A stretch of 42,656 nucleotides of DNA from a virus. Taxonomy: Duplodnaviria > Heunggongvirae > Uroviricota > Caudoviricetes. The position numbers were made by a program, and so were the translations under genes. The stretch lies in IMG/VR virus record IMGVR_UViG_2698536681_000004, one strand, 5' to 3'. The notes beneath the pieces are model-generated. The model searched no databases, was not told the DNA's origin, and saw only the letters and a list, made by a program, of their open reading frames with translations. Positions 1,546-40,800 of the stretch are shown here, in pieces; the first letter of the stretch is position 1, and every line of letters starts with the position of its first letter.

Positions 1546-2718
1546 TCACGATGTGCGAATAAAAAGCCCGGGCATTGCGCCAGAGACATGAGCATCCGGC
1601 ACCCCGGACAGGGCGCAATATGACCCCGGTAATGAATGCTCTGAACATCCCGTAATGAAAAATTGTGGGGATGCTATATACGTTCCGGTGGGAGTACTGG
1701 GCACTGAAATCCCCACCGGTCCCAGTCGTGAGCCTCTGTATGACTGCCCCCTGACAAGTCTGATGACTTTATCACCGTCAGCTTCTCCCTGGTACGCAGC
1801 AATAATCAGCCCGCCAATGTCAGGGTCTCCCCATCTGTTGCAGACAGAGCTCGCCACGATTCTGTAAATAATATCTTCTGTGGTTATATTTATTTTCACC
1901 CAGCCAGTCAGTCTGGATATGGGCCAGTAGCAGTAGCGGGTGTGATAAATGGGGCCGTTAATGCCGTAAAAAGTAAGGGATTTGGCTCTGTACCTCGGTT
2001 CTGTTGTCTCAGGGCGTGCATCAGTCCACCGGATGCTGAGCACCCCTTCAAACCGTGTGTCGGGTATGATGATGTCGTAGGGGCCAGCAACGGAATATTC
2101 ACCTGGCAGCGCATTCCTTACCCAGGCCAGGAAATCACTCTTAGTGTCAAAACGGATAACATCTTCAGGCAGAAAAGCACACCCAAAGCCGAATGCGCCG
2201 GGTATCGCCAGACGGCCTTTTGTCCGGTCGTAAATGTCGCTCTGTGCTTCCATCGTGGCCGCACTTTTCAGCCCCAGATTATCCCGGGACTTCTGTTGTG
2301 CCTTTTCGCCTGCTGCTGCGATTTCAGACAGATGGTTAGCCGTTTTCAGAGTGCCGGTCAGCGCAGCATCAATGTCATTTTTGGCCTGCTCTGCTGCGCG
2401 GGCATAACCTGCGGCTGCCGCCACATCCTGCGCCGTCTGCTGTGCGTTTCCGGCTGCGGCCCCGGCGCTCTGCTGCGCCTGCGCCACCATTTCCTCAAAG
2501 CGTTTGACGACATCCGGTTTCAGGTCGCCCTCATCAGGAGCAATCAGAAAGTCATTCAGCGTGCCGGGCTTTGAGTCGTCGTATACAGCAATGTCGCCAA
2601 CGTTGTACTCGTTGTGCCAGCCCGGTTTCAGATACACACCATATTTTCCAGTCCGCGCATGGAAACAGTATTCACCATCGTTTCCTGTCATCACATCAGC
2701 AACAGTGTGCATCACCAC
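1546..2718 (-). CDS. stf: Lambdoid side tail fibre protein Stf, probably 5'-truncated by the adjacent IS66 end
   Basis: N-terminal region contains the conserved Stf motif VYDDSKPGTLNDFL followed by Ala/Gln-rich repeats; aligns with lambda Stf from about residue 40 onward; IS66 terminal repeat begins 17 bp upstream. Confidence 0.7.
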   Translation of the reverse strand: MVMHTVADVMTGNDGEYCFHARTGKYGVYLKPGWHNEYNVGDIAVYDDSKPGTLNDFLIAPDEGDLKPDVVKRFEEMVAQAQQSAGAAAGNAQQTAQDVAAAAGYARAAEQAKNDIDAALTGTLKTANHLSEIAAAGEKAQQKSRDNLGLKSAATMEAQSDIYDRTKGRLAIPGAFGFGCAFLPEDVIRFDTKSDFLAWVRNALPGEYSVAGPYDIIIPDTRFEGVLSIRWTDARPETTEPRYRAKSLTFYGINGPIYHTRYCYWPISRLTGWVKINITTEDIIYRIVASSVCNRWGDPDIGGLIIAAYQGEADGDKVIRLVRGQSYRGSRLGPVGISVPSTPTGTYIASPQFFITGCSEHSLPGSYCALSGVPDAHVSGAMPGLFIRTS

Positions 2719-3337: not shown

Positions 3338-3405
3338 TTTGATACCGATTTGCATTTCATTTGATACCGCTGAAAAACGCCGATACGCAACTTATTTGAT
3401 ACTAA
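3338..3405. repeat. Prophage right end (attR-like): three closely spaced TTTGATAC(C/T) motifs, putative transposase binding sites
   Basis: TTTGATACCG at 3338-3347 and 3360-3369, TTTGATACTA at 3395-3404; the same motif occurs three times in reverse complement at the other prophage end. Confidence 0.6.
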
Positions 3406-3448
3406 ATCGGCGCTTTTCTTTTGAGTTTTAGAATGAGTTTTTAAGCGT

Positions 3449-4186
3449 TCATTCACTCTCTTTCAAACCAGTTTTAACTGTTTGTGGTTTTGGGTAAGGC
3501 TGGACTTTGAATAGCTTTGTGTTAAGGCGTTTTCTGGCTCTCTTGTCCAGAAACCGGATGTAACGAAACTGACGGAATTTATGAACACTGGCTCTGTCGA
3601 TATTAGCCCGCAGATGTTCACCTCGCTGTCCTCCTCGTTTGATTGCATTCTTGCAAATCTCGTGATACCACTCGCCATCAAGTTCATAGAATGTTGTTTC
3701 ATGACTGCCTACATAATCAAAATTGCTTGCCTGGTACACGACACCAAGACAGCCACAACGCTCATCTGCAAACGACTGAACCCACTGCACCTGCGGATAA
3801 AGTTGTCTGATTAGTTTGAGCGCGTAACTGATTGCCCTTGATTCGGAGTTTCTCGGCATACAGTCATGCAGCCATAACCGGTTAAGCTCCATATATTCGC
3901 GGTTCTGCGTGCCAGTTACGACGCGTGCACCATTGTTTGGATTAAGGGCATAACCCCATTGCATTACGCCAACCAGCTCCCGTTCTGAAAATATGCCCAG
4001 ATGAAGGTAGGAATTATTTACGAAACGATGGCTGTAATGTTTATTGACGACGACCAGCCGGGCCAGCCAGCAACTTATTGTCTCAACCCGTAACTCACGG
4101 GAGCCATAACCGACGATATTGTCGTTATAGTGAATAAGTTCAGGCGTGCTGATGATACGGGATGTAACTTGCTTTCTGTTCCCCAC
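3449..4186 (-). CDS. mom: Mom-like DNA modification protein (start internal to the long ORF, approximate)
   Basis: ORF overlaps the 3' end of com exactly as mom does in Mu and is the last gene before the prophage end; the longest ORF (to 4381) would run through com so the true start is internal, candidate GTG at 4186; Mom family assigned by synteny. Confidence 0.55.
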
Positions 4187-4340
4187 GACAGGATTTCCTT
4201 GTGTATGTGGGGTGCTCTGTGGCGCTCTGAGATGTGATTTGATTGAGGGTTTTACAGCGCGGACATTTAACTTCCAGATAACTGAAGCTGGCTCGTGCCA
4301 GTAGCTTGTTACAATGTCGGCACCGTATGTTTCGATACAT
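4140..4340 (-). CDS. com: Com-like zinc-finger translational activator of mom
   Basis: ATG at 4340 preceded by AGGAGG; product [27 protein letters not shown] has the CxxC...CPRC zinc finger and strong similarity to Mu Com as recalled (IRCKNCNKLLFKA...IEIRCPRCK). Confidence 0.75.
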
Positions 4341-4383
4341 GGCCGCATAACCTCCTGCTTTGTTGTTGATATCTTTATCACTC

Positions 4384-4408
4384 AATCGATCGACAAAAAC
4401 GATCGATT
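4384..4408. promoter_or_regulatory. Perfect 9-bp inverted repeat with a GATC Dam site in each arm, upstream of com-mom
   Basis: AATCGATCG (4384-4392), 7-nt spacer ACAAAAA, CGATCGATT (4400-4408); GATC at 4388-4391 and 4401-4404, a third GATC at 4470-4473; sits about 45-70 bp upstream of the com ATG. Confidence 0.4.
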
Positions 4409-4596
4409 TGATTTATTTAATTGATACAACAAATAACACGAAATGTCATTAGCGAAAATTTATGAGTTTGATCACTAATTTTAAACGGTGCTGTAACGCA
4501 TAAGTGCTGAATGATTGTACATTTGAATACCGCAAAGCAAACAAATCAACTAATTTATAGAAGTCAATTGGTTAATTGCCAGCGTAAGAGGCTGCT

Positions 4597-4890
4597 ATGG
4601 ACAATCATGTAACGACGAGAAATCGAAAAATGATTGAAAATGCGGAAATCTATAATGATTATTTTTCCGATTATTCAGATGCCTGCAAATACAGTTCGAG
4701 TGCGGGAGAGTTCATATGCTTCAACTTTTTTATTAAATCTTATGTTTTTCCTCCACAGCAAGAAGATGGAGGTGTGCCACCTCCTGAAATCACTTTGCAC
4801 CGTATAGCCTCCGTCTCAATGATGGAGCAACAGGCTAATGAGCTGTATAGCATTCTGGGAACGATTCTACAAAAGCGTGAATCGGACTAA
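4597..4890 (+). CDS. Hypothetical protein, AT-rich ORF divergent from com-mom
   Basis: 97-codon ORF with AAGAGG 6 nt upstream of the ATG; AT-rich composition unlike the flanking phage genes; no family recognised. Confidence 0.4.
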   Translation: MDNHVTTRNRKMIENAEIYNDYFSDYSDACKYSSSAGEFICFNFFIKSYVFPPQQEDGGVPPPEITLHRIASVSMMEQQANELYSILGTILQKRESD

Positions 4891-5057: not shown

Positions 5058-5312
5058 TTACATCATGGTACTGTCAGTTCCGGGCTGAGCCGGGTCTGGT
5101 TGCTCTGGCTGCGCGTCGGTTTTCGGCTCATTATCAGCATCACTGGCCGCAACTGCTGGCCCAATAAGTTTTGCCAGCACTTCATCAACGTAAGTGTCGA
5201 TTTGTGCCTCAAAATCCTTGCGGACCTGCGCTTTCAGCAACTTATTTACTTCACCGGAATACAGTGCCTGTTTTACCAGGTCTTCAGTGACGGTGCCTTT
5301 AATTTCTGGCAT
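5058..5312 (-). CDS. Hypothetical small acidic protein
   Basis: 84-codon ORF with AGGAGG 6 nt upstream of the ATG at 5312; no family recognised. Confidence 0.5.
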   Translation of the reverse strand: MPEIKGTVTEDLVKQALYSGEVNKLLKAQVRKDFEAQIDTYVDEVLAKLIGPAVAASDADNEPKTDAQPEQPDPAQPGTDSTMM

Positions 5313-5347
5313 GTATATCCTCCTTATGCGGGAATAAAGCCCTGCAA

Positions 5348-5530
5348 TCAGGGCTGGGTCGGGTCTTTTGGGAGCGGAGTTACCTGCGCTGTTTTACTGA
5401 GTTTTTCAGCTGCTGCGTCCTCAATTTTGCGGCGAACATAATTTCTGATGGCCTTATAACCACCACTCACCAGATATAACGCACATACTGCCGTGCAGAA
5501 ATACAATAAAATAAGCTGTAAAAATGTCAT
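5348..5530 (-). CDS. Hypothetical small membrane protein (single N-terminal transmembrane helix)
   Basis: ATG at 5530 preceded by GGGAGGG; product MTFLQLILLYFCTAVCALYLVSGG then a basic tail; no family recognised. Confidence 0.45.
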   Translation of the reverse strand: MTFLQLILLYFCTAVCALYLVSGGYKAIRNYVRRKIEDAAAEKLSKTAQVTPLPKDPTQP

Positions 5531-5579
5531 TATCCCTCCCAATTATTGACATGGTGTTGACACCGGTAATATCTGTTAG

Positions 5580-5667
5580 GTAAAAAGGTGCACTGCATTT
5601 TTTGCTTTGGATATAACGATCTTTTTGCCGCCGGTTTCTTGTTTTCCCTTACCGGCGGCATTTTTTT
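5580..5667 (+). ncRNA. Candidate small RNA (promoter-like hexamers plus strong intrinsic terminator, no ORF)
   Basis: TTGACA at 5546-5551 and 5557-5562, TAATAT at 5567-5572, then about 85 nt downstream a terminator; lies in the intergenic space between two minus-strand genes. Confidence 0.25.
5626..5667 (+). terminator. Rho-independent terminator, plus strand
   Basis: Perfect 10-bp stem TGCCGCCGGT (5626-5635) / ACCGGCGGCA (5651-5660), 15-nt loop, followed by TTTTTTT (5661-5667). Confidence 0.6.
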
Positions 5668-5674
5668 ATCCTGC

Positions 5675-7729
5675 TTACGCGTTATTCACTTCCACCACGA
5701 TACTGTCAATCAGTACCGGGTAAGTCGCATTTTTAGTGATATCGGTCACGCGCAACTTGTCTGCCGTAAACGTGCCGACCGGAGACTGCGACAGCATGAA
5801 TGGTGTCCCGTCCTTACCATCAATGACCGGCGTCACCTCAATACTGTTGTTACCGGCAAAACGGAAGCCCAGCGTATGCCATTCGTTATTAAATGCGCCG
5901 AATGACCCCAGCTTCGTGTTCTGCGCCGTGTTTCCTTTGTGATACATCACGTTAAGGTCTGTGGCATCGCTCTGTACGTAGAACGATGCCAGCAGGTTAT
6001 GACCGGCATTTCCTTCCAGAGTAACCCCTTGCGGCAGGGCAGAAACCGGCCAGTACAGCGCCAGTGCGTACTGATTAGCCGTAAGCGCGCCATCGAGTTT
6101 AAAACGACAACTGACAAGACCACCTTTACCCAGCAGGTCCGCACCATTACCAGCATCATGCTCAAGGTACCAGGGGGCTCTTCCTGTTTCCTTGGTCAGT
6201 TTCATTGCCTTACCCCCGCTGGCTCCGGCATCATCCACGATTTGAGCCTTGCCACCTCCGGCAGCCCAACCCTGTGGTGTCAACCGTCCTTCAGACTCAG
6301 ATGCCCGGTAAGCAAATAGCGTACTCATCGTCGTGGTGTCTGCGGGTGGCGTGGACGGTTTTGATGGTGTATCAGGTGACGGCTTCTCATCCGGTGGTGT
6401 CACGGTCTGCCCACGCATCAGTTCAGCCGTGCGCCCTGCATGGAGCATAATAGCTGAGGCCAGACGGTCTGAAATGACGCCCCTGCGTGCCCATGAGCTG
6501 AAATGGCTGTCACGCTGTGTCGAAACAAAACTGCCCTGGGTTCGGGATGCTGCACCGTAATACCCGACAGCCACAATATCCGGGTCTTCCGCCGGAGCAT
6601 TCGTTGGCGTGCTCTGTCCATTCTCATCCGTCAGGAACGGTACAAAGAAAATTTTCTGTGCTTCCTTGCCTTTGTAGCCACCGTATACTGCCTCATATTT
6701 ATCGGTGCCAGCGTTTTTCCAGTAATACGTGGTATCACCGCAAATCCACGGCACCGTGGTGGCATTTCCACTCACGCACTGCGCAGCAAGCGGAGCCAGG
6801 TCAGTTCTGAACTGCTGAACCATGGCCGTGAATAAACTATTATGCTGCTGGCTTCCTGAGGCAAGGTCTGCCTCTCCCTGCATCCAGACCACAGCCAGAA
6901 GTTTGTTTTTCGGGTTTTTCGCCAGCGCGACTTTGGTGCGGCTTACCAGGTCCTGATACAGAGGTTTACCGGCCCCCCAGCGTGAAGAATCAGCGGAAGC
7001 ACCGCTGGCCTCACTGAATGAGCCGTCGGCTCCAGTGGTGAATGCTGACCCGCCACGACAACAGGGCACCAGAAGTATCCCGGCATTCTGTGGGATATAG
7101 GGAAGCAGTTTTTTGGCAATATGCAACCCCTGACCGACAGTCCCGTACTGGCCTTTTGCCAGATCAGCTTTCGGGTGGTTTATCCCGCTCATATCCTGAA
7201 CATCATGCAGGCAGTGGTCTGCCGGAATGATGTCGTTGTATGTACACGACGTACCGTTGGGCGTTACCGTACTGCGGCGTGCCAGTTGCTTAATGCGTGG
7301 GTCCGGGCGGTCAAACGAATCCGGTAACGGCAGCCCCTCGCCGTAGGCCATGCCATTTGACTGACCCGCGAGAATGACAACAAAGTAATATTCCGGCTCT
7401 GAACTGCTGCCATTCGTGCTACCGGAAGGCCCGGCGTTATCCGGTGCATTCCAGTCGGAGGGCGTGAGCGTTCCGGCCACGTCAGATGTGATTGGAATGA
7501 TGCCAGTCACGCCTGAACTGGTGATTTCTGCACTGGGATTACCGGATACCGGCATTACCCATAATGGCTCTTTCGTGCTGAAGCGGATCACGCAGTCTGC
7601 GAAGGTGATCCCCCCTTTATTACCCGAAGGGCGGAAAGGGCTTTCAATAAATGCCACCGTGCCACCGGCAACCTTGACTGAAAACTCTCCGGGCATGGCG
7701 GAGAGCATTTTCCACTTGGAGTCTGACAT
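5675..7729 (-). CDS. NanS-p-like sialate O-acetylesterase family protein (SGNH/DUF303 esterase with C-terminal lectin-like domain)
   Basis: Catalytic-type motifs VVILAGQSNGMAYGEG and VVWMQGEADL typical of SASA/DUF303 esterases; 684 aa, comparable to prophage NanS-p esterases. Confidence 0.65.
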   Translation of the reverse strand: MSDSKWKMLSAMPGEFSVKVAGGTVAFIESPFRPSGNKGGITFADCVIRFSTKEPLWVMPVSGNPSAEITSSGVTGIIPITSDVAGTLTPSDWNAPDNAGPSGSTNGSSSEPEYYFVVILAGQSNGMAYGEGLPLPDSFDRPDPRIKQLARRSTVTPNGTSCTYNDIIPADHCLHDVQDMSGINHPKADLAKGQYGTVGQGLHIAKKLLPYIPQNAGILLVPCCRGGSAFTTGADGSFSEASGASADSSRWGAGKPLYQDLVSRTKVALAKNPKNKLLAVVWMQGEADLASGSQQHNSLFTAMVQQFRTDLAPLAAQCVSGNATTVPWICGDTTYYWKNAGTDKYEAVYGGYKGKEAQKIFFVPFLTDENGQSTPTNAPAEDPDIVAVGYYGAASRTQGSFVSTQRDSHFSSWARRGVISDRLASAIMLHAGRTAELMRGQTVTPPDEKPSPDTPSKPSTPPADTTTMSTLFAYRASESEGRLTPQGWAAGGGKAQIVDDAGASGGKAMKLTKETGRAPWYLEHDAGNGADLLGKGGLVSCRFKLDGALTANQYALALYWPVSALPQGVTLEGNAGHNLLASFYVQSDATDLNVMYHKGNTAQNTKLGSFGAFNNEWHTLGFRFAGNNSIEVTPVIDGKDGTPFMLSQSPVGTFTADKLRVTDITKNATYPVLIDSIVVEVNNA

Positions 7730-7800: not shown

Positions 7801-7834
7801 AATTCAAAAAAGCGTCACGGTACTTTTGGTGACG
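7801..7834 (-). terminator. Intrinsic terminator overlapping the invertase stop codon
   Basis: Stem CGTCAC (7813-7818) / GTGACG (7829-7834) with a 10-nt loop; on the minus strand followed by CTTTTTTGAATT. Confidence 0.5.
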
Positions 7835-8391
7835 GAGCTGGTGAGGCAGGAAAATAACGATAAAGGGTGGAAAGGCCAATATCAAATATCAGTGCGATTT
7901 GTTTACGGGACTCGCCATTAGCCAGCAAACGGGCGATTTGCTCCCGCTCTTTCTCTGTCAGTTTCTGAGGTCTGCCGCCATGACGCCCCTGAGCACGGGC
8001 AGCAGCAAGACCCGCGCGTGTACGTTCAATAATGAGTTCCCGCTCCATTTCCGCCAGCGCGCCCATTATATGGAAAAAGAAACGTCCCATGGGAGTGGAT
8101 GTATCAATATTGTCCGTAATGCTGCGGAAGTTAACGCCGCGTTGCCGGAGTTCTTCTGTTAAAAGGACAAGGTGCTGCATACTGCGTCCAAGGCGATCCA
8201 GTTTCCAGACCAGCAGGGTATCCCCTGGCCGGAGTCGCTTTAATGCGCGTTTAAGTCCGGGACGCTCCCTTGTCTTACCGCTTATTCTGTCTTCGAAAAA
8301 CAGCTCACATCCTGCACATTCCAGCGCATTTCTTTGTAGCGCCGTATTCTGGTCATTTGTTGACACCCTGATATACCCAATNNNNNNNNNN
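7815..8391 (-). CDS. gin: Serine recombinase, DNA invertase of the Gin/Pin/Hin family (first codons lost in the assembly gap)
   Basis: Translation IGYIRVSTNDQNTALQRNALECAGCELFFEDRISGKTRERPGLKRALKRL...GRFFFHIMGALAEMERELIIERT is near-identical in pattern to Gin/Pin; reading frame runs into the N-run at 8392. Confidence 0.9.
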
Positions 8392-8723
8392 NNNNNNNNN
8401 NNNNNNNNNNNNNNNNNNNNNNNNNNNNNNNNNNNNNNNNNNNNNNNNNNNNNNNNNNNNNNNNNNNNNNNNNNNNNNNNNNNNNNNNNNNNNNNNNNNN
8501 NNNNNNNNNNNNNNNNNNNNNNNNNNNNNNNNNNNNNNNNNNNNNNNNNNNNNNNNNNNNNNNNNNNNNNNNNNNNNNNNNNNNNNNNNNNNNNNNNNNN
8601 NNNNNNNNNNNNNNNNNNNNNNNNNNNNNNNNNNNNNNNNNNNNNNNNNNNNNNNNNNNNNNNNNNNNNNNNNNNNNNNNNNNNNNNNNNNNNNNNNNNN
8701 NNNNNNNNNNNNNNNNNNNNNNN
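8392..8723. other. Assembly gap (332 N)
   Basis: Uninterrupted run of n characters. Confidence 1.
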
Positions 8724-18538: not shown

Positions 18539-20041
18539 TCACAAAATGAAACGGATCTGCGCGGCCATGAAGCGGAACTGGTTAACCAGATCCGGTGTAC
18601 ACATCACATCCAGACGGTTACGGTCTTTTGTGTTGCGCTCCACGAGCAGATTCTTTTTAAAGGTGTCCAGATTTTCGACCAGTCCCAGATCCACCCATTC
18701 TTCCCCCAGCGAAATTAACTGAAGTTTCATGATCTCCGGTGTCACGATATTCTGACCGGCACGAACGGGCGTCCCGTCATCAGCCAGTTTATGGCGCGGA
18801 AAACGCTGCGTGATAAAGGTGCGCAGGGAATAACGCAGATATGACAGGGTGTAGATGGTTTCCACATCCAGATAGCTGGGATCGATTTCGCCGTATGCAT
18901 TCTGACGGTACATCGTCACCTGACGTTCAATCTGCACCACATCCGCGGCCGCGACGGTCACCGTGGACATGCCGGTATAAAGCAGGCTGTTTCGCTCTTC
19001 CCGCGTCAGACGATCCGGTGCTTCAGGTGCCATACGGGCAGGCAGCGCCAGTGTCTGTAATGGTCGGGCCGGATCCGTTGACAGGGAGGGCGCACAGACC
19101 GCACAAATGGAGGCAGCCCAGACATAATCCGGCTCTGGTGCTTTAGGAATAGAAGTGCAGGTAAACAGGAAGTCATTACGGGATTCACCAAAACTGGTTG
19201 CCGTACCGAAGGTGCCGGTATGCGCCATCCAGACCATACCGTCCGACATTTTTACCGGTCCCCAGCGTTTCAGCAGTTCATCCGCCAGAATTTTGAGATT
19301 TGCCGCATCCTTATAGGGCATGACGATGTAGTTGTACTGACGATTCCCCATCCCTGAGACGCTACGGGTGATATCGGGGTTTGTTGCCTTCTGTGTTGGC
19401 GCGACGAGCTCCAGCGTAAGACCGGCCGGTGTAGTTTCACCGTCATAATAGTTCACCCGTAAATCATGAGCTGAGCATTCACCGATAAAGCGGGCGTTAA
19501 CCCCCATGCTGCCTTTAAGTCCTTCAGCATTATCACCACTGACTTCAGCTGCGATAGCAGTGAATGGCGCATCAGTGTCAGCGTTAATGACCTTAGCCAG
19601 CTCTTCCACAAGCTCTTTACCTTTTTTCCCCTTACTGACGGGCAGGAGGTAACGGCGACCGCCGATGTAAACACTTAACACCCCGTCTGCCAATGCTGTT
19701 CCAATGATATTCATCACGCATGCCCTGGACTGACCTGTTCCAGCCCCCTGTGCAATGGCATATAACTCTGTGTCAGGGTTAATGGCGATAAATTCCTCTA
19801 CCATCAGTGCAATCATGGAACCTCGCCCCCAGAGTTCTCTTGCTTGTGAAGCTCGGGTAATACGTACTGGTACATCAAGCTGACCGCGCCCCTGAATGGT
19901 AGTGTCTTTCATTGCAGCCTGACCAAACAACAGTACCGCCTGACGCTGTGGTGGAGTGCCGGTCACGGCCATTGAATTATTGATTTCAATCTGTACCAGC
20001 GGAATGCGATTGTTATCGCCGATATAATCAAAGTTAATCAT
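18539..20041 (-). CDS. Tail sheath protein (Mu gp39-like)
   Basis: 500-aa product in the conserved sheath position. Confidence 0.8.
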   Translation of the reverse strand: MINFDYIGDNNRIPLVQIEINNSMAVTGTPPQRQAVLLFGQAAMKDTTIQGRGQLDVPVRITRASQARELWGRGSMIALMVEEFIAINPDTELYAIAQGAGTGQSRACVMNIIGTALADGVLSVYIGGRRYLLPVSKGKKGKELVEELAKVINADTDAPFTAIAAEVSGDNAEGLKGSMGVNARFIGECSAHDLRVNYYDGETTPAGLTLELVAPTQKATNPDITRSVSGMGNRQYNYIVMPYKDAANLKILADELLKRWGPVKMSDGMVWMAHTGTFGTATSFGESRNDFLFTCTSIPKAPEPDYVWAASICAVCAPSLSTDPARPLQTLALPARMAPEAPDRLTREERNSLLYTGMSTVTVAAADVVQIERQVTMYRQNAYGEIDPSYLDVETIYTLSYLRYSLRTFITQRFPRHKLADDGTPVRAGQNIVTPEIMKLQLISLGEEWVDLGLVENLDTFKKNLLVERNTKDRNRLDVMCTPDLVNQFRFMAAQIRFIL

Positions 20042-24554: not shown

Positions 24555-25886
24555 TTAATCAATTTGTCCTTCCAGCACCTCAAGCATTCCGCCCCGGATA
24601 TCCGATTTCAGCTTATCCATATTGATAACCCGGTAAGCATTCACAATCACATCCAGTTTGTCGGGCTGACGTTTCAGACTGTACGGTGCATTAACGGCAA
24701 TCTGCACACTGCCATCCTGATTTTCCACGATATACATCAGATTGTTGTGCCGTTTGTCCCACAGTACCGCTTTTGGCCTTGCCAGCATTGCCGGTAAGCG
24801 CCCGAAGTCCTCCGGCGTCAGAGCGATGCCGTCATTCTGATGTTTCACACTGTCCGCATGGAGCACATTTTTACCGCTCATCGCCAGCAGGCGGGCCGGT
24901 GGCGTTCCCGTCCGGCTTTCCACTGCCTGCGCAATGCTTTCAGTCATAAAGCCCAGCGTGCGGATATCGTTACCACCTCGCCGGGTCTGCATGATGTTTT
25001 TTGCCCAGATGCGGAACGCCAGCTGCCGCTCCGGGCTGTTGTTCATCTCCTGAACCACCATTTCCCGTAACGCCGGGCTTTTCACCTCGATCAGTTTGCG
25101 GATCAGCGCCTGGTCTGTGCCGAACGCTGCCGAGCCGGGGTTATATGACCAGCCCACATCCGGTGTCATGGTTCTGGCGCCATCTGAATATGTGGTCACC
25201 GGCATTTCTCTGACTTCTCCGGTCTGTTTATCCACGCCAGCCTCAACATTGCGGGTGGAGAGATGATCCTCACCGGATGAAACGGATAACCCCATTGCAT
25301 CCAGACGGGCCTGAGACAATGGCCGCACACGGCAGCGGCAGTTCCAGCCATTGGGCGGGTAGTGTGTTTTCCAGAACGGATCGTCATAGCGGAATACCAG
25401 ACCGTTAAGGGCGGAATGCGACGGGCGGGTACGGCTGTCCATGACCGCCACATACTGCCAGAACGGATGCGTGTCCGTGTTGTTCATCATCTGCGTGTAA
25501 CGCCCGGCATTGTAAGCCACACGGGTGTTCACGTTGTAAATCAGCGCCAGACGACGGGGACTGCCCTGCTGCACTTCTTCCGCGTTACCGTCGCTGTCCA
25601 CCACAATCTGCTTTCCCCACCATCCCAGCTTTTGCAGGCGTGGCGTCAGTGTGCGGATAAATTCTTTCTGTGAAATCCCCTCATCAATGGCCCGCTGCAC
25701 TTCGGCCTGTAATGTGGTTACCACATCCAGCCGTGCCGTTTTTGCTGCCGTGAATGAGCGGGCATGAACATCCGCGTCTGTTTCGAACCAGTTCCAGCTG
25801 ATATGCGCCCCTTTGGCGCGGAAGTATGCCACCGTCTCTTTTGAGGGAAGCGTGGCGGCATAACCTAAATCAATCCCCTGAGCCAT
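24555..25886 (-). CDS. Head morphogenesis protein (Mu F/gp30-like)
   Basis: 443-aa product immediately downstream of the portal gene. Confidence 0.75.
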   Translation of the reverse strand: MAQGIDLGYAATLPSKETVAYFRAKGAHISWNWFETDADVHARSFTAAKTARLDVVTTLQAEVQRAIDEGISQKEFIRTLTPRLQKLGWWGKQIVVDSDGNAEEVQQGSPRRLALIYNVNTRVAYNAGRYTQMMNNTDTHPFWQYVAVMDSRTRPSHSALNGLVFRYDDPFWKTHYPPNGWNCRCRVRPLSQARLDAMGLSVSSGEDHLSTRNVEAGVDKQTGEVREMPVTTYSDGARTMTPDVGWSYNPGSAAFGTDQALIRKLIEVKSPALREMVVQEMNNSPERQLAFRIWAKNIMQTRRGGNDIRTLGFMTESIAQAVESRTGTPPARLLAMSGKNVLHADSVKHQNDGIALTPEDFGRLPAMLARPKAVLWDKRHNNLMYIVENQDGSVQIAVNAPYSLKRQPDKLDVIVNAYRVINMDKLKSDIRGGMLEVLEGQID

Positions 25887-27459
25887 CCAGCATCCCCTTC
25901 ATTTCCGCAGCAAACATGGCATCACTGAGCAGCGTCATCAGGCGGGAATCATCCATTTCACGGTAAAGGGCAGGCAGGTCTGCCAGTGCCTCCGCCAGCC
26001 CCCGCGTTCTGATGACATCAATGACCGGCTCCAGCACCGGATCGATGGCCTCCTGTAAGCGGCGGGCAGGCACCGCGTCCCCCATGTCGTCCAGTTCATC
26101 ACGCGGCGTGTTTTTCGCTTCCGGCAGTCGGGCTGAAAGCGCCGTCTGTTCTGTCTTTTCCTGTTTTTCCGGTAGCGTTTCCCTGTCAGGCATGGCCGGT
26201 TCATTACTGCTCTGACGGACACGGAATATGGCTTCACCGGGCGTGGGCTGTGGAATACCGGTCTGATCCCGTACCCAGGGATCAGGAATATCCATCCCCG
26301 CACTGAGTTGCATCACCGCACTGGCTATTTTGGTGATATCCCCCGGTTCTTTGGTCTGGAAACAGATACGCGGCAGGCGACGGATATCAATGGCGTGGGC
26401 GGTGTTCAGGGCATACAGCGGATACACCAGATCGCGGTTCAGGGTTGCAGCCAGCTGGCGTAAATCAGAATCCCTGATTTCCCGGCGCACCTCGTTATGC
26501 ACCTCACCCAGCGAGCGCGCGCCTTTGTCTCCGGCTTCTGTGGTCAGCGTGCCGCCGAGTATTGCTTTGGAGATGGAACGCTCACCCCACGAAATCATGG
26601 TTTCAAACGGATCGGCCTGACCGTTCGCTGCCGCCTGAAACTCCAGCGACATCCCGGCCGGGATGATCCCGCCTGTACGTCGCCCGATATCCATCACCGC
26701 CCGCATCAGGGCACTTTTCTGCTCCGGTGTTGCCCCGGACGGGTATTTCCCGACCTTCATTGGCAGGCCGTACACCTCCAGAAATTCCGCCAGATCGCGC
26801 ACGGAATAGTTTTTGAAAATGAACGGCCAGATAAGCGTTCTGACAAGCCCCGTCGCACCACCGTAGCCGGTGCGTGAACGCGACTGATGCACTATCCAGC
26901 CAAAGGGCTGAAACGCCACCCCGGCATGGCTGCCGTCACGCAGCCGCAGTTCGCTCAAATCATCCGGGTTAAGGCAGAAATGCCCGCTGTCACGCCAGCG
27001 GATGGCGCGGATGATGTGCATTTTACCGAGCATCCCGTGCTCAATTTCCATGCAGGAATAGCCCTTCAGGATGGCATCCGTGGCGTCAAACAGCATGGCA
27101 TCAAACCAGTCTGCGGAATGCAGATATTCGTCGAGCATTTCCGCGTCCTTTTTCTCATTCGCGCTGGCGTTCGGTGGCGGCTCAATACTCCATGGCACCC
27201 CCTGAATGGCAAGACGTCGCTTGCCCAGCTCCGCAAAAAGGTGGGTGTCCTTTTCTTCAATATCAGCGGCCAGATCGGACTGGGCAATCAGATCGCCACG
27301 TTCAGCCCCGCGAAGGCACTGCGCCGCCCGGTTCGGGGTGATACCCGAAGCCGGATGTTCAATATAACGGCTGGCAATCTGCGGAATATCCAGCGCGGCA
27401 CTCTGCATCTCCGGGTCAAAGGAGAAAGGTTTTCCGTCAGTATCAATGATGCGTCCCAC
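25870..27459 (-). CDS. Portal protein (Mu gp29-like)
   Basis: 529-aa product immediately downstream of the large terminase gene. Confidence 0.8.
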   Translation of the reverse strand: MGRIIDTDGKPFSFDPEMQSAALDIPQIASRYIEHPASGITPNRAAQCLRGAERGDLIAQSDLAADIEEKDTHLFAELGKRRLAIQGVPWSIEPPPNASANEKKDAEMLDEYLHSADWFDAMLFDATDAILKGYSCMEIEHGMLGKMHIIRAIRWRDSGHFCLNPDDLSELRLRDGSHAGVAFQPFGWIVHQSRSRTGYGGATGLVRTLIWPFIFKNYSVRDLAEFLEVYGLPMKVGKYPSGATPEQKSALMRAVMDIGRRTGGIIPAGMSLEFQAAANGQADPFETMISWGERSISKAILGGTLTTEAGDKGARSLGEVHNEVRREIRDSDLRQLAATLNRDLVYPLYALNTAHAIDIRRLPRICFQTKEPGDITKIASAVMQLSAGMDIPDPWVRDQTGIPQPTPGEAIFRVRQSSNEPAMPDRETLPEKQEKTEQTALSARLPEAKNTPRDELDDMGDAVPARRLQEAIDPVLEPVIDVIRTRGLAEALADLPALYREMDDSRLMTLLSDAMFAAEMKGMLDGSGD

Positions 27460-37473: not shown

Positions 37474-37701
37474 TTAGCTGACTTGTTTCGCACCAACAGA
37501 ACGGCATATTCCGCTGTAAACTTCTGTCGCACCTTCGCGATCAAGTCCGGCAGATATCACCATTCGTGTGCGGTCATTAAATTCAAAAAGTAAATCGCCA
37601 CATTCTTTATTTTCGGCCAGTGAAATCACCTTCACGTTATCGAAATTAACCAGGTAAAAGCGTCCGTAAATATCAGGAATATTAAATACCGCCATAATCA
37701 C
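37474..37701 (-). CDS. Hypothetical protein
   Basis: 75-codon ORF immediately downstream of B. Confidence 0.4.
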   Translation of the reverse strand: MIMAVFNIPDIYGRFYLVNFDNVKVISLAENKECGDLLFEFNDRTRMVISAGLDREGATEVYSGICRSVGAKQVS

Positions 37702-38639
37702 ACCTGTGAGAGTAATTCAGGGTTGGTATAAACCTCTTTAAAGGCCGCATTAATATGTTTTTCTGTCAGCGCCGCGCCTTCACCGCTGGCGGTGAGCCAC
37801 GCCTGGTTAAGCGTATGTGTCAGAACGCGTAACGCTCCCGGCTTTTCAGCGATAGCCTGCATGACGGCCAGCTCGGCCTCACCACTGATCCCCCACGCCA
37901 TGGCAATGGCCAGCACATCCGCCTTTTTGGCCTTGCGAAGTTGTTTTGTACGGGCAAGACGGCTGAACAGGCGCGATAAATCATCAAAGGCGCGGCGTCC
38001 ACCTTTAAACAATCCGCGCGGGTTACCAATAAGCACCATCCCGATCCCCGTGGCGTCCTGAATTGCCCGGAGTTGCTCCAGACCGTCAATACCAAGATGA
38101 TCCGCCTCATCCACAATCACCAGTCCACGCGTTCCCATCAGGCGACGGCGGATGGCGCGGGATAATGCCCCTTTGTTCGCGCGGGTGTAATCAATCCCCA
38201 GCGCATCGGCCAGCTCCAGCAGACACTCCGTGACGCTGGAGTGCGCGGGTGACAGGGTGATCATCCAGGTGTTTGGTTGCTCCTGGCAGTAATTACGGGC
38301 AGTGGCCGTTTTACCCACACCCGGTACGCCCACAATAACGTTAATACAGCCCATCAGGCGAACCGCCTGAAACAGTGCGCGCAGCTCCTGGACTGTCTGA
38401 GTTTCCACAAACTGCGGCGGTTCCGGCAGTGCGCTTTGTTTATTCCAGTTCTCATACCAGGAGCGCAGGGAAGCAGCCACAGCAGCGTTATCGCCTTTAT
38501 ATTTTCCCTTACGGAAAGCCGATAATGTGCCGTCGGAAATTCCCGCCTCTCTGGCGATGGCATACTGCGTCAGTACGCCGCCATCAATAAGTTCATCAAT
38601 GGTCTTGATTACATCGTTAATATCGGTCATATTATTCAC
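37698..38639 (-). CDS. B: Transposition ATPase B (MuB-like)
   Basis: N-terminal helix-turn-helix, Walker A GVPGVGKT, and position directly downstream of the transposase. Confidence 0.8.
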   Translation of the reverse strand: MNNMTDINDVIKTIDELIDGGVLTQYAIAREAGISDGTLSAFRKGKYKGDNAAVAASLRSWYENWNKQSALPEPPQFVETQTVQELRALFQAVRLMGCINVIVGVPGVGKTATARNYCQEQPNTWMITLSPAHSSVTECLLELADALGIDYTRANKGALSRAIRRRLMGTRGLVIVDEADHLGIDGLEQLRAIQDATGIGMVLIGNPRGLFKGGRRAFDDLSRLFSRLARTKQLRKAKKADVLAIAMAWGISGEAELAVMQAIAEKPGALRVLTHTLNQAWLTASGEGAALTEKHINAAFKEVYTNPELLSQV

Positions 38640-38712: not shown

Positions 38713-40800
38713 TCAGGCCAGCGGATCACTTTCTTTTAATTTCGCTTCGAGCAGTTGCAATCCCCGCTGGAAATTACGCTCGTATTCTTCATCAGGTTCA
38801 TCGTCAGCGACCGGTTGCTGAACGGTCACCGTATTACCCACAGGGCGGTATATGTTTTCCAGCCAGGGCTCCTGCGGCTTGTGCTCCAGCACGTTGACAA
38901 CCTCATCCTCGGCATCACGGATTTTTTCCTCTGCGCGTTTACGCATGCCTTTAAGGCGCTGCTGCTGTTTGTAGTATTCCGCGCTGACAGGGAAGGCTTC
39001 GCGTTTATTGCCGTCCCATACCGCCTCGCAAATCACGCTGCCATCCGGGCGGCGCACGGTAATTCGTTCGGCATCATGAATGTCATAGCTGATAAGTACC
39101 TTACGGCCATGCTCGTCACGCAGCTCGGGCGCGTAGTAAATATTATTCAGCCAGCGTATTTCACAGCGTCTTACAGGGCGCTCCACCATCGGCCGGAACA
39201 TATCCCGCAGTTCAACATCGGACAGCCATTCAATTTCCGTGTCCTCTTCCGCCAGGCGTTTTTTTCTGAACTCCGCCGGGCTGTAATGTTTACCGTTCGG
39301 CTTCATGGGTAATTCATCGTGCGGCCGGTTGTTGTACCACTCAACACCGTCACGAATGGCATCAATCAGTTCAGACCAGGACGGTAAATCACGCATCGCT
39401 GACTGCTGCCGGGCGTTCAGCCGTTTGCCCTGTTGCAGGGCACTGAATGCCGAGCGTAAATCGCGGTTGGTTTTACGTAACGTCTCGCGATCTGCTCCTT
39501 TCCCGAAATAGGTGCGGTATTTACGGGCTATGCGCATCGGTAATGTGCGGTTAAGCCGTTCGATAATGCCCCGTCCCTGCGGATTACCGGCAATCCCTGT
39601 CGGGTGATTAATCCCCAGTCGTGGCAGTATCCCCACAATCTCCTTATCCAGGACGTCGGCGGTTTCCCCGGAGCCATTATCCGAGTAATACAGAAACGGT
39701 TTGCCATGATGGCGAATACCGTGCTGTATGGCACCGGCTACGGCGAAAACATTTTCAGCCAGGTCAAGGCTCCAGCCCACCACAAAGCGCGTGCCACCGT
39801 CGATAACAAAGGTCACTTCCGGTGCGAATGGCCGCCCGTGAACCGGGTGCGCGCATTTCAGCTTCATGCCGTGACCGTCACCAATCCAGACATAATTCAC
39901 CGGCATTCTGGACCAGTCGCGGCGCGTGAATCCCTCAAGCTGACGGTATTCACTGCCAGTTACCCGGCCTTTTTGTTTCACCACTTCCGGCAGTTTCTTC
40001 ATTGCGCGGCGAATGGTGTCATAAGAGGGCATGATATCGAGCATATAAGGCTCATCAGCGTGCCGGTGCTGCCATTCAGCAACAAAATCCTCGTAAGCCT
40101 CGGTCATTGGTCGGCCGTTTGACTGGCGATACTGCGCCAGAAATTCGGGCAGCCAGTTAATATCTTCGGCTTTTATTTCCTGGCGTTTACCCGGTGCCAG
40201 TAAAAGCAGGCGTTCAGCGGCGTTCTGTGCCTTGTTAAAGGCCGCAATCCAGCGTTTCAGCGTGATTTCACTCAACGCGCGGCTGTTTCCCTTTTTGGCG
40301 TTCGCCGTCTCAACCATTGCCACAATGCGCTCGTCCAGTTGTGATCGTGCCAGGCTGTTAACGAGGAACCGGATAGCTTTAGCGCAGCTGAAACCGGGTT
40401 GTTGCGTGAATTTCAGCACCTCACTGACGATCGCAATGCGTGCGTCTGCCACCTGGCGCTGGTTTTCAGTCAGGGCATTGAGGCGTTCGACCATCAGTTG
40501 TGGTGATCCGCGATATGCCTCCACCGCATCAACCACGGCAGACGAGCGTCTGGCCTTTGTCACCACCGGAGCCGGTGATTCATCGGCTTTTTGCGTCATC
40601 AGTTGCAGGGCATAACGTTCGCGTAATGCCTGCTGTGTCACTTCAGGTAAACAGTCAATGCTGTATTCAAAACCTTTAGCGCCTTTCTTGCGGCGTCTGC
40701 TGGTTTCGCTGGTTGCATACTTCCTGATTGAATAGCGAACGCCTTGCTCCGTTCCCGGCATCCCCGGTAATCCAACCAGTTCTTTAACTGAAGCAAACAT
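38713..40800 (-). CDS. A: DDE transposase A (MuA-like)
   Basis: 695-aa product with N-terminal DNA-binding region and central integrase-like core; follows ner. Confidence 0.85.
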   Translation of the reverse strand: MFASVKELVGLPGMPGTEQGVRYSIRKYATSETSRRRKKGAKGFEYSIDCLPEVTQQALRERYALQLMTQKADESPAPVVTKARRSSAVVDAVEAYRGSPQLMVERLNALTENQRQVADARIAIVSEVLKFTQQPGFSCAKAIRFLVNSLARSQLDERIVAMVETANAKKGNSRALSEITLKRWIAAFNKAQNAAERLLLLAPGKRQEIKAEDINWLPEFLAQYRQSNGRPMTEAYEDFVAEWQHRHADEPYMLDIMPSYDTIRRAMKKLPEVVKQKGRVTGSEYRQLEGFTRRDWSRMPVNYVWIGDGHGMKLKCAHPVHGRPFAPEVTFVIDGGTRFVVGWSLDLAENVFAVAGAIQHGIRHHGKPFLYYSDNGSGETADVLDKEIVGILPRLGINHPTGIAGNPQGRGIIERLNRTLPMRIARKYRTYFGKGADRETLRKTNRDLRSAFSALQQGKRLNARQQSAMRDLPSWSELIDAIRDGVEWYNNRPHDELPMKPNGKHYSPAEFRKKRLAEEDTEIEWLSDVELRDMFRPMVERPVRRCEIRWLNNIYYAPELRDEHGRKVLISYDIHDAERITVRRPDGSVICEAVWDGNKREAFPVSAEYYKQQQRLKGMRKRAEEKIRDAEDEVVNVLEHKPQEPWLENIYRPVGNTVTVQQPVADDEPDEEYERNFQRGLQLLEAKLKESDPLA

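Follow-up and report, generated by a model that had tools for sequence, protein, structure and literature searches.

Background

In pathogenic E. coli, host regulation is rewired by prophage-borne small RNAs (sRNAs), the majority of which lack annotation. Among the described ones, the closest to the element studied here is EcOnc33 of E. coli O157:H7, which Tree et al. (2014; Table S2, PMC4104026) placed on the minus strand of prophage Sp6 with an Hfq-CRAC peak in 5/5 replicates, a predicted Rho-independent terminator and a northern band of ~71 nt, the sequence of the northern probe being given in their Table S3C. An Hfq-binding module composed of a U-rich tract and a U-tail has been described in work that they cite. 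Moreover, in the RNase E-CLASH data of Waters et al. (2017; PMC5286369), the entries of Table EV7 examined for EcOnc33 give a best-scoring hybrid between its 5' end, CCTGCATGTTTTGCTTTGGAT, and ECs5359 (5 reads, found in replicates and in both orientations, with Hfq-site overlap and an FDR of 2.7e-4) and a second hybrid with ECs0890 (2 reads), both of which use the 5' 20-22 nt of EcOnc33. The name 'EcOnc33' itself is absent from the main texts in the literature searched.

PasA and PasC of EPEC E2348/69 are RNAs of ~80-85 nt that are validated by northern blot and depend on Hfq for their stability. Both are located at the 3' end of prophage esterase genes in a '> < >' orientation, antisense to both neighbours; EcOnc51/52 of EHEC are their reported homologs, and the arrangement of esterase, PasA or PasC, and holin has been called typical (Zhu, Shabalina and Storz, bioRxiv 2026).

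Herein we describe a stretch of phage DNA at the 3' end of a prophage esterase gene which, as judged from its sequence and its relatives, very probably encodes a small regulatory RNA, namely a variant of EcOnc33 in a Mu-like prophage. What is new is the allele in an unusual carrier; what is known is the little-studied prophage sRNA EcOnc33, experimentally detected in O157:H7.

Results and discussion

The intergenic region and its surroundings

The whole stretch analysed, called the window hereafter, has 42,656 nucleotides and, according to Pfam matches and gene content, is almost a whole Mu-like prophage, in which a cargo cassette of esterase, intergenic region, DUF1378 and DUF826 lies between gin and com/mom. 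The RefSeq record of the identical locus annotates the same genes and nothing in the intergenic region. The genes that matter here are the following.

3449-4156: Mom
4140-4385, minus strand: Com
5058-5312, minus strand: DUF826 gene, last in the cassette (Pfam PF05696)
5348-5530, minus strand: DUF1378 small protein, 60 aa (Pfam PF07125, E = 9e-32)
5675-7729, minus strand: SASA/DUF6645 carbohydrate (sialate O-acetyl) esterase, 684 aa (Pfam PF03629 and PF20350; RefSeq annotation of the identical locus)
7815-8366: gin-like invertase
18539-20041: tail sheath
25870-27459: Mu portal
37698-38639: MuB
38713-40800: MuA

The original prediction had pointed to two TTGACA hexamers, a TAATAT element and a perfect GC-rich hairpin with a seven-T tail, all on the plus strand between two minus-strand genes. 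Direct reading of the plus strand finds every one of them in place between the esterase and DUF1378 genes: both hexamers and TAATAT are present, the stem has 10/10 perfect pairs (8 of them G-C), and the seven Ts follow its right arm directly, so that hexamers, hairpin and T-run are confirmed as observations of the sequence. The spacing of about 85 nt between hexamers and hairpin needs a correction: the hairpin is 80 nt away from the first TTGACA and 54 nt away from TAATAT. The esterase gene ends 7 nt past the T-tail, with its stop codon at 5675-5677 (TTA as read on the plus strand), and 15 nt separate the DUF1378 start from the upstream TTGACA. The parts of the region, all on the plus strand and including those assigned by the comparisons below, are as follows.

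5546-5551, plus strand: upstream TTGACA, one unit of an 11-nt tandem duplication (TTGATA in most variants)
5557-5562, plus strand: likely -35 hexamer TTGACA (conserved in the variants)
5567-5572, plus strand: TAATAT, the -10 candidate of the original prediction (TAATAC in other variants, TAATGC in O170:H18)
5581-5586, plus strand: likely -10-like hexamer TAAAAA (its 18-nt spacing from TTGACA is kept in all alleles)
5593-5667, plus strand: predicted small RNA of ~75 nt, EcOnc33 homolog (from homology and fold; 5' end +/- ~4 nt)
5593-5612, plus strand: predicted 5'-terminal seed region CUGCAUUUUUUGCUUUGGAU (best-conserved part of the RNA body)
5620-5625, plus strand: U-rich tract UCUUUU just 5' of the terminator (read from the sequence)
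5626-5635, plus strand: left arm of the hairpin, TGCCGCCGGT (read from the sequence)
5636-5650, plus strand: hairpin loop, 15 nt (read from the sequence)
5651-5660, plus strand: right arm of the hairpin, ACCGGCGGCA (read from the sequence)
5626-5660, plus strand: terminator hairpin as a whole, 10-bp stem and C/U-rich 15-nt loop, conserved (from its fold and its uniqueness in the window)
5661-5667, plus strand: T7 tail, the 3' U-tract (read from the sequence)

The hairpin as a predicted plus-strand terminator

Our own hairpin scan covered both strands of the 42.6-kb window and required 8 or more perfect base pairs in the stem, 3-20 nt in the loop and a run of 6 T or more. It returned 5626-5667 as the sole hairpin with a T-run on either strand, compared with a mean of 0.02 such sites expected per window from 300 first-order Markov simulations. 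The 81-nt stretch folds with -25.2 kcal/mol (z = -4.8) and the terminator hairpin alone with -19.9 kcal/mol (z = -4.4). The GC-rich 10-bp stem with T7 immediately 3' of it on the plus strand is that of a Rho-independent terminator, with a loop of 15 nt that is atypically long. On the minus strand, what comes after the hairpin is AAAAAG, with no U-tract; the orientation of the hairpin thus fits the arrest of plus-strand transcription alone, and a role in terminating esterase transcription looks unlikely. A generic scanner called neither a promoter nor a terminator at 5546-5667, because its loop limit is 8 nt and it requires a T at position 6 of the -10 element.

Homology to EcOnc33 of E. coli O157:H7

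The 144-nt intergenic region has homologs in 355 of 5,426 complete E. coli genomes, of which 21 match it at 99% or more and about 326 at 80-90%, EDL933 and other listed O157:H7 genomes included; among the matches listed, the identity to EDL933 and other O157 genomes is 80.8% (E = 9e-29). The Sakai and EDL933 copies of the locus are identical over 200 nt, and the reverse complement of the EcOnc33 northern probe, GTCCTGCATGTTTTGCTTTGGATATAACGACATTT, is an exact match to both, inside the aligned region. Since the probe fits the O157 homolog base for base, the O157 counterpart of the window element is an experimentally detected, Hfq-bound small RNA. It should be mentioned that the old Sakai coordinates in the 2014 and 2017 tables run ~140 nt below those of NC_002695.2 at this locus, and for this reason the locus was anchored on the probe and read sequences. 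The EDL933/Sakai homolog sits in the lambdoid prophage CP-933N/Sp6, in the order antiterminator Q, TerB-like, DUF3927, esterase, intergenic region, DUF1378, DUF826, holin, lysozyme.

Compared with EDL933, the intergenic segments are 76-88% identical, against 70% for DUF1378, 54% for DUF826 and 70% for the whole esterase. The last 300 nt of the esterase gene reach 91%, and the high conservation of the intergenic part could thus be due in part to a recombination boundary. A covariance model built from 8 EcOnc33-type variants, the window included, gives the window element 92.8 bits, which is a match by construction because the element is among the model sequences; the same model detected no further copy elsewhere in the window. 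Across the 8 variants, the 8-bp core stem, GCCGCCGG/CCGGCGGC, shows no change other than one G-U wobble. The stem, being nearly invariant, lends no covariation support. As a separate observation, a C/U-rich motif, CUUGUUUUCCCU, is kept in the terminator loop (5636-5650 in the window) in 7/8 variants, with loop lengths of 15-24 nt, and may serve for contact with Hfq or as another site of pairing.

The expectation of a short non-coding plus-strand transcript at the esterase 3' end is thereby supported through the homologous O157:H7 locus, which makes such an RNA, and for the window copy transcription would follow by homology. More specifically, our main reading, to which we assign a probability of about 0.72, is that of an Hfq-type trans-acting sRNA gene, an allele of EcOnc33, carried antisense to its neighbours in a prophage cargo cassette of sialate esterase, sRNA, DUF1378 and DUF826. 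The element is annotated in none of the RefSeq records examined, and there is no Rfam family for it.

The same variants bear on the coding potential. Open reading frames do exist mechanically in the region, namely one of 43 aa on the minus strand (5530-5661) and one of 38 aa on the plus strand (5607-5723), and either might be supposed to encode a small protein. The frames, lengths and sequences of such ORFs differ among seven variants because of indels, so that no intergenic ORF is conserved, just as the absence of a plausible ORF had been claimed; moreover, the 43-aa ORF has no Pfam match and its ATG is absent from the O157 alleles. The small-protein readings are effectively refuted by this comparison.

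The putative promoter and the predicted ends of the RNA

The plus strand of the window holds 7 TTGACA where ~10 are expected, and a single one is unremarkable. The two of them here, at a distance of 11 nt, have the look of a single tandem duplication (TTGACATGGTG / TTGACA), whose upstream unit, 5546-5551, is by its variation probably not a working -35. In the O170:H18 variant exactly 11 nt are lost, that is one TTGAYA unit, and TTGACA-N18-TAAAAC is still present. TAATAT, which had been taken for the -10 element, sits 4 nt past the conserved TTGACA and 15 nt past the non-conserved one, and reads TAATAC or worse in every other variant; we rejected it on conservation, and it is probably spacer only. 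The comparison of variants favours instead a promoter made up of TTGACA at 5557-5562, an 18-nt spacer and TAAAAA at 5581-5586. Its -35 is perfect, and its -10-like hexamer has 4/6 matches to the consensus and no final T, so that the promoter remains a putative one.

From such a promoter, RNA polymerase would start ~7 nt past TAAAAA, near 5593, and transcription would stop at the hairpin and U7 (5626-5667), giving an RNA of ~75 nt (~5593-5667) in place of the 80-90 nt first proposed. With this predicted start, the RNA would begin with the conserved CUGCAU, and the RNA-seq 5' end of PasA is likewise 6-7 nt past its equivalent hexamer. Applied to the O157 allele, the same reasoning predicts 77-80 nt versus the ~71-nt northern band, and the boundaries given in old coordinates by CRAC and CLASH are a few nucleotides further upstream than the predicted start; for these two reasons the 5' end is given as +/- ~4 nt.

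It could also be supposed that there is no RNA gene at all, that the hairpin and T-run only stop plus-strand read-through, for example from the ORF at 4597-4890, and thus insulate the cassette, and that the hexamers are coincidental. The generic scan, with no promoter called, and the weak -10-like element are in line with this supposition; however, the O157 homolog yields a discrete Hfq-bound RNA of ~71 nt, the layout of TTGACA, N18 and an A-rich hexamer is found in six alleles and survives the 11-nt deletion, and the part 5' of the hairpin is better conserved than the coding DNA of DUF1378 and DUF826. We consider a mere insulator to be quite improbable, and continue with the sRNA gene.

The predicted seed and its possible targets

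The seed CUGCAUGUUUUGCUUUGGAU, which is the part in the CLASH hybrids, is identical between the window and O157 at 19/20 positions. The difference falls on position 7, which is U in the window (CUGCAUUUUUUGC) and G in O157 (CUGCAUGUUUUGC). The resulting run of six U is also found in O170:H18, and one further variant (L106) is likewise without the G, with five U.

By their sequence, the UCUUUU tract and the 3' U-tail jointly resemble an Hfq-binding module, and the U-rich tract, the hairpin and the U-tail of the window copy would bind Hfq, as shown for the O157 homolog, and the single-stranded 5' end, CUGCAUUUUUUGCUUUGGAU, may base-pair with host mRNAs. On checking the gene identities, ECs_5359 is arcA, with the hybrid spanning the arcA Shine-Dalgarno/AUG region, and ECs0890 is dps. 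The tabulated hybrids of the O157 allele with the arcA start region and with dps would suggest translation repression and RNase E-dependent decay, and it is plausible that these targets and this mechanism hold for the window copy too. No reporter validation of the EcOnc33-arcA or EcOnc33-dps pair was found in those parts of the literature that were searched.

The duplex predicted for the 5' 22 nt with the arcA start region has -14.7 kcal/mol in the window versus -19.3 kcal/mol in O157. For a longer arcA target, the duplex is only weakly better than those of shuffled sequences (fraction 0.03 for O157, 0.12 for the window), and the arcA link is therefore taken from the published hybrids and not from the duplex prediction. 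Since the G-to-U change weakens the predicted arcA duplex, the target set of the window allele may differ. If the CLASH link to arcA is true, lysogeny by such phages could adjust the aerobic/anaerobic control of the host.

The same change raises the question whether the window holds a decaying copy, no longer expressed in the Mu-like phage or left without targets owing to the seed substitution. The weaker predicted arcA pairing and a Mu-like setting without the lambdoid late-operon context would fit such decay, but none of the promoter hexamers, the U-rich tract, the perfect hairpin or U7 shows any damage, 21 complete genomes carry the same or nearly the same allele, which recurs in 12 IMG/VR loci, and the G is lacking in O170:H18 and L106 too. 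We regard decay as very improbable, the functional sRNA gene being preferred.

As for targets nearer by, a search of the prophage for an 18-nt complement of the seed with at most 3 mismatches found only the cis site. The RNA might act mainly in cis, controlling the esterase-DUF1378 operon either through an RNA duplex that RNase III cleaves or through colliding transcription, a reading which is compatible with trans action. It is perfectly complementary to the minus-strand transcript at the 132-nt esterase-DUF1378 junction; in EPEC, PasA has the 3' ends of esterase mRNAs among its RIL-seq targets; and convergent sRNA pairs at prophage moron sites are described by Tree et al. However, the predicted RNA ends ~50 nt short of the DUF1378 ribosome-binding site, and the EcOnc33 hybrids among the examined entries of Table EV7 are with the core genes arcA and dps. 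A mainly cis-acting RNA is for us an unlikely reading, and the trans-acting sRNA remains the one we adopt.

The Mu-like carrier and the movement of the cassette

By pattern search, the window allele is found in 12/50 IMG/VR loci, with mom or gin adjoining wherever the flanking DNA suffices, and the O157 allele is found beside holin, lysozyme and Q, with the exceptions of a Mu-like locus (L080) and a composite one (L090); 2 of the 50 pattern matches were set aside as chance matches. L080 carries an O157-type sRNA allele in a Mu-like context. In L090, ~4 kb separate a Mu-like right end (DUF826...mom) from a lambdoid lysis cassette, and the esterase of this lysis cassette is 98% identical to that of the window. 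Both loci give a hint of how the cassette is exchanged between phage types. From the distribution of alleles over carriers, together with a different RNA body in a related Mu-like phage described below (L010), it follows that the cassette has moved between lambdoid and Mu-like phages and that the slot holds different RNAs.

In a phage collection, megablast gave no match, and the distant mode showed that most Stx phages match at the esterase 3' end only, in addition to two Mu-like insertions. A degenerate pattern scan over one genome per species gave 59 matches in unrelated taxa, none of them in Enterobacteriaceae, which is consistent with chance.

Several other observations concern the carrier itself. 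At the same prophage end, rhsC/ybfB form the flank in strain JE86-ST05; in the window, the DNA on the left side of mom codes for a 'prophage tail fibre N-terminal' protein (1546-2718, minus strand, and 3342-3449). The flanks being different, the Mu-like phage sits at different sites in different strains, and that of the window may lie within a second prophage, in the manner of the Mu-like phage found in an Stx2c phage in LC727881. A run of 342 N (masked, 8382-8723) starts 15 nt past the gin-like invertase gene, where the invertible tail-fibre segment is expected to begin. The Com-family gene (4140-4385, minus strand) is frameshifted according to RefSeq at the identical locus, and a 310-aa ORF of the window (3449-4381) runs through the com/mom overlap. 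Between com and DUF826, a 97-aa ORF (4597-4890, plus strand) faces the cassette; it has no Pfam match, a shorter version of it is annotated as hypothetical in RefSeq, and promoter-like sites occur at 4576 and 4634. Between DUF1378 and DUF826, on the minus strand at 5334-5364, a hairpin AGCCCTG-ATTG-CAGGGCT followed by TTTATT spans the DUF1378 stop and may be a weak terminator or attenuator within the cassette.

Comparison with known systems

At gathering thresholds, Rfam has no match in the whole window. A permissive search returned only the sub-threshold models Esr41, STnc480 (on the opposite strand) and SpF51, and we treated them as a resemblance driven by the terminator and not as the identity of the element. 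Esr41 (RF02676), for example, scores 22.2 bits (E = 0.07 in a 551-nt search) against a gathering threshold of 102 bits, and in the other direction the EcOnc33-type covariance model finds no significant match at the Esr41 locus (E = 7.6). Esr41, an Hfq-dependent sRNA of horizontally acquired EHEC DNA, does share with the window element a U-rich single-stranded region followed by a GCCGGC-type terminator and U7 tail, but it lies in SpLE1 with no adjoining esterase.

The anti-sRNAs AsxR and AgvB resemble the window element in being short, convergent prophage sRNAs downstream of a moron gene, and also in the plan of a conserved 3' module with a variable 5' seed. Unlike it, they have 51-60 nt and sponge the core sRNAs FnrS and GcvB, sponge activity being something of which the window element gives no sign; their Rfam models (RF02703/RF02702) have no match at E up to 10 within 5250-5800.

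EvrS/Esr023, STnc100 and PasD flank the same family of prophage esterase genes, but they lie on the other side of the esterase, in sense orientation, with 154-206 nt, and are structurally unrelated to the window element. In CP-933N of EDL933 (L004, 6226-6392, minus strand) an STnc100-family sRNA (94 bits), which is the published EvrS/Esr023, is located upstream of the very esterase that has EcOnc33 downstream. Such an upstream RNA is absent from the window, where gin sits 85 nt upstream of the esterase. As to the possibility of a renamed EcOnc33, HnrS and EvrS were rejected as different loci, HnrS being EcOnc10-12 and EvrS being the STnc100-like RNA upstream of the esterase.

With PasA and PasC the window element has in common the slot at the 3' end of a prophage sialate esterase gene, antisense on both sides. 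In fact, a layout of TTGAC(A/T)-N18-(T/C/G)A(A/G)AAA is found in 6/6 alleles, namely the window, EcOnc33, L010, PasA, a second PasA unit and PasC, the A-rich hexamer being TAAAAA in the first three, CAGAAA in PasA and PasC, and GAAAAA in the second PasA unit. A GC-rich hairpin and U7 adjoin the esterase stop in the window, EcOnc33, L010, PasC and the second PasA unit. The RNA bodies and the terminator stems differ in sequence, however, and the proposed PasA seed is in the terminator stem, whereas that of the window element is predicted at the 5' end. The EcOnc33-type covariance model gives no significant match to the second PasA unit (13.5 bits, E = 0.67), to PasC (8.1 bits, E = 9.9) or to L010 (E = 1.3), and distant-mode blastn against complete E. 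coli genomes has, among the matches listed, only EcOnc33-type loci and no PasA or PasC. As the bodies are not significantly similar, we file the element with EcOnc33; PasA and PasC share its slot without belonging to one alignable family with it.

L010 (5240-5385 in that locus; LC727881.1, a Mu-like phage inside an Stx2c phage) has a different RNA body in the esterase/DUF1378 slot, with TTGACT-N18-TAAAAA and a terminator CCCGCC...GGCGGG and T7 adjoining the esterase stop, and looks like an undescribed allele of the slot. Tentatively, and with more doubt than confidence, one may go further and picture the slot as a modular sRNA cassette of fixed promoter layout and terminator position, with swappable seed bodies (EcOnc33, PasA, PasC, L010), which would accompany the esterase on its way between the unrelated lambdoid and Mu-like phage types. 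In this picture the window allele, with its altered seed, would re-target host regulation, perhaps by way of the global regulator ArcA or of a set of mRNAs other than that of the O157 allele.

Altogether, EcOnc33-type sRNAs are not confined to the lambdoid prophages of EHEC, since they are also found in Mu-like prophages of other E. coli, together with the sialate esterase; natural alleles of this type differ in their seed, and there is a clear case for adding an EcOnc33/Pas-type family to the RNA databases. To EcOnc33 itself the window element is alike in its flanks (esterase and DUF1378), its orientation antisense to both, its promoter layout, its core terminator stem, its loop motif and its U7 tail. 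Against the O157 allele, there are differences in the first 4-5 nt, in the tract that precedes the terminator and in the length of the loop. Moreover, expression and Hfq binding are documented for the O157 copy only, and while the O157 copy belongs to a lambdoid late region, that of the window lies in a Mu-like prophage between gin and com/mom.
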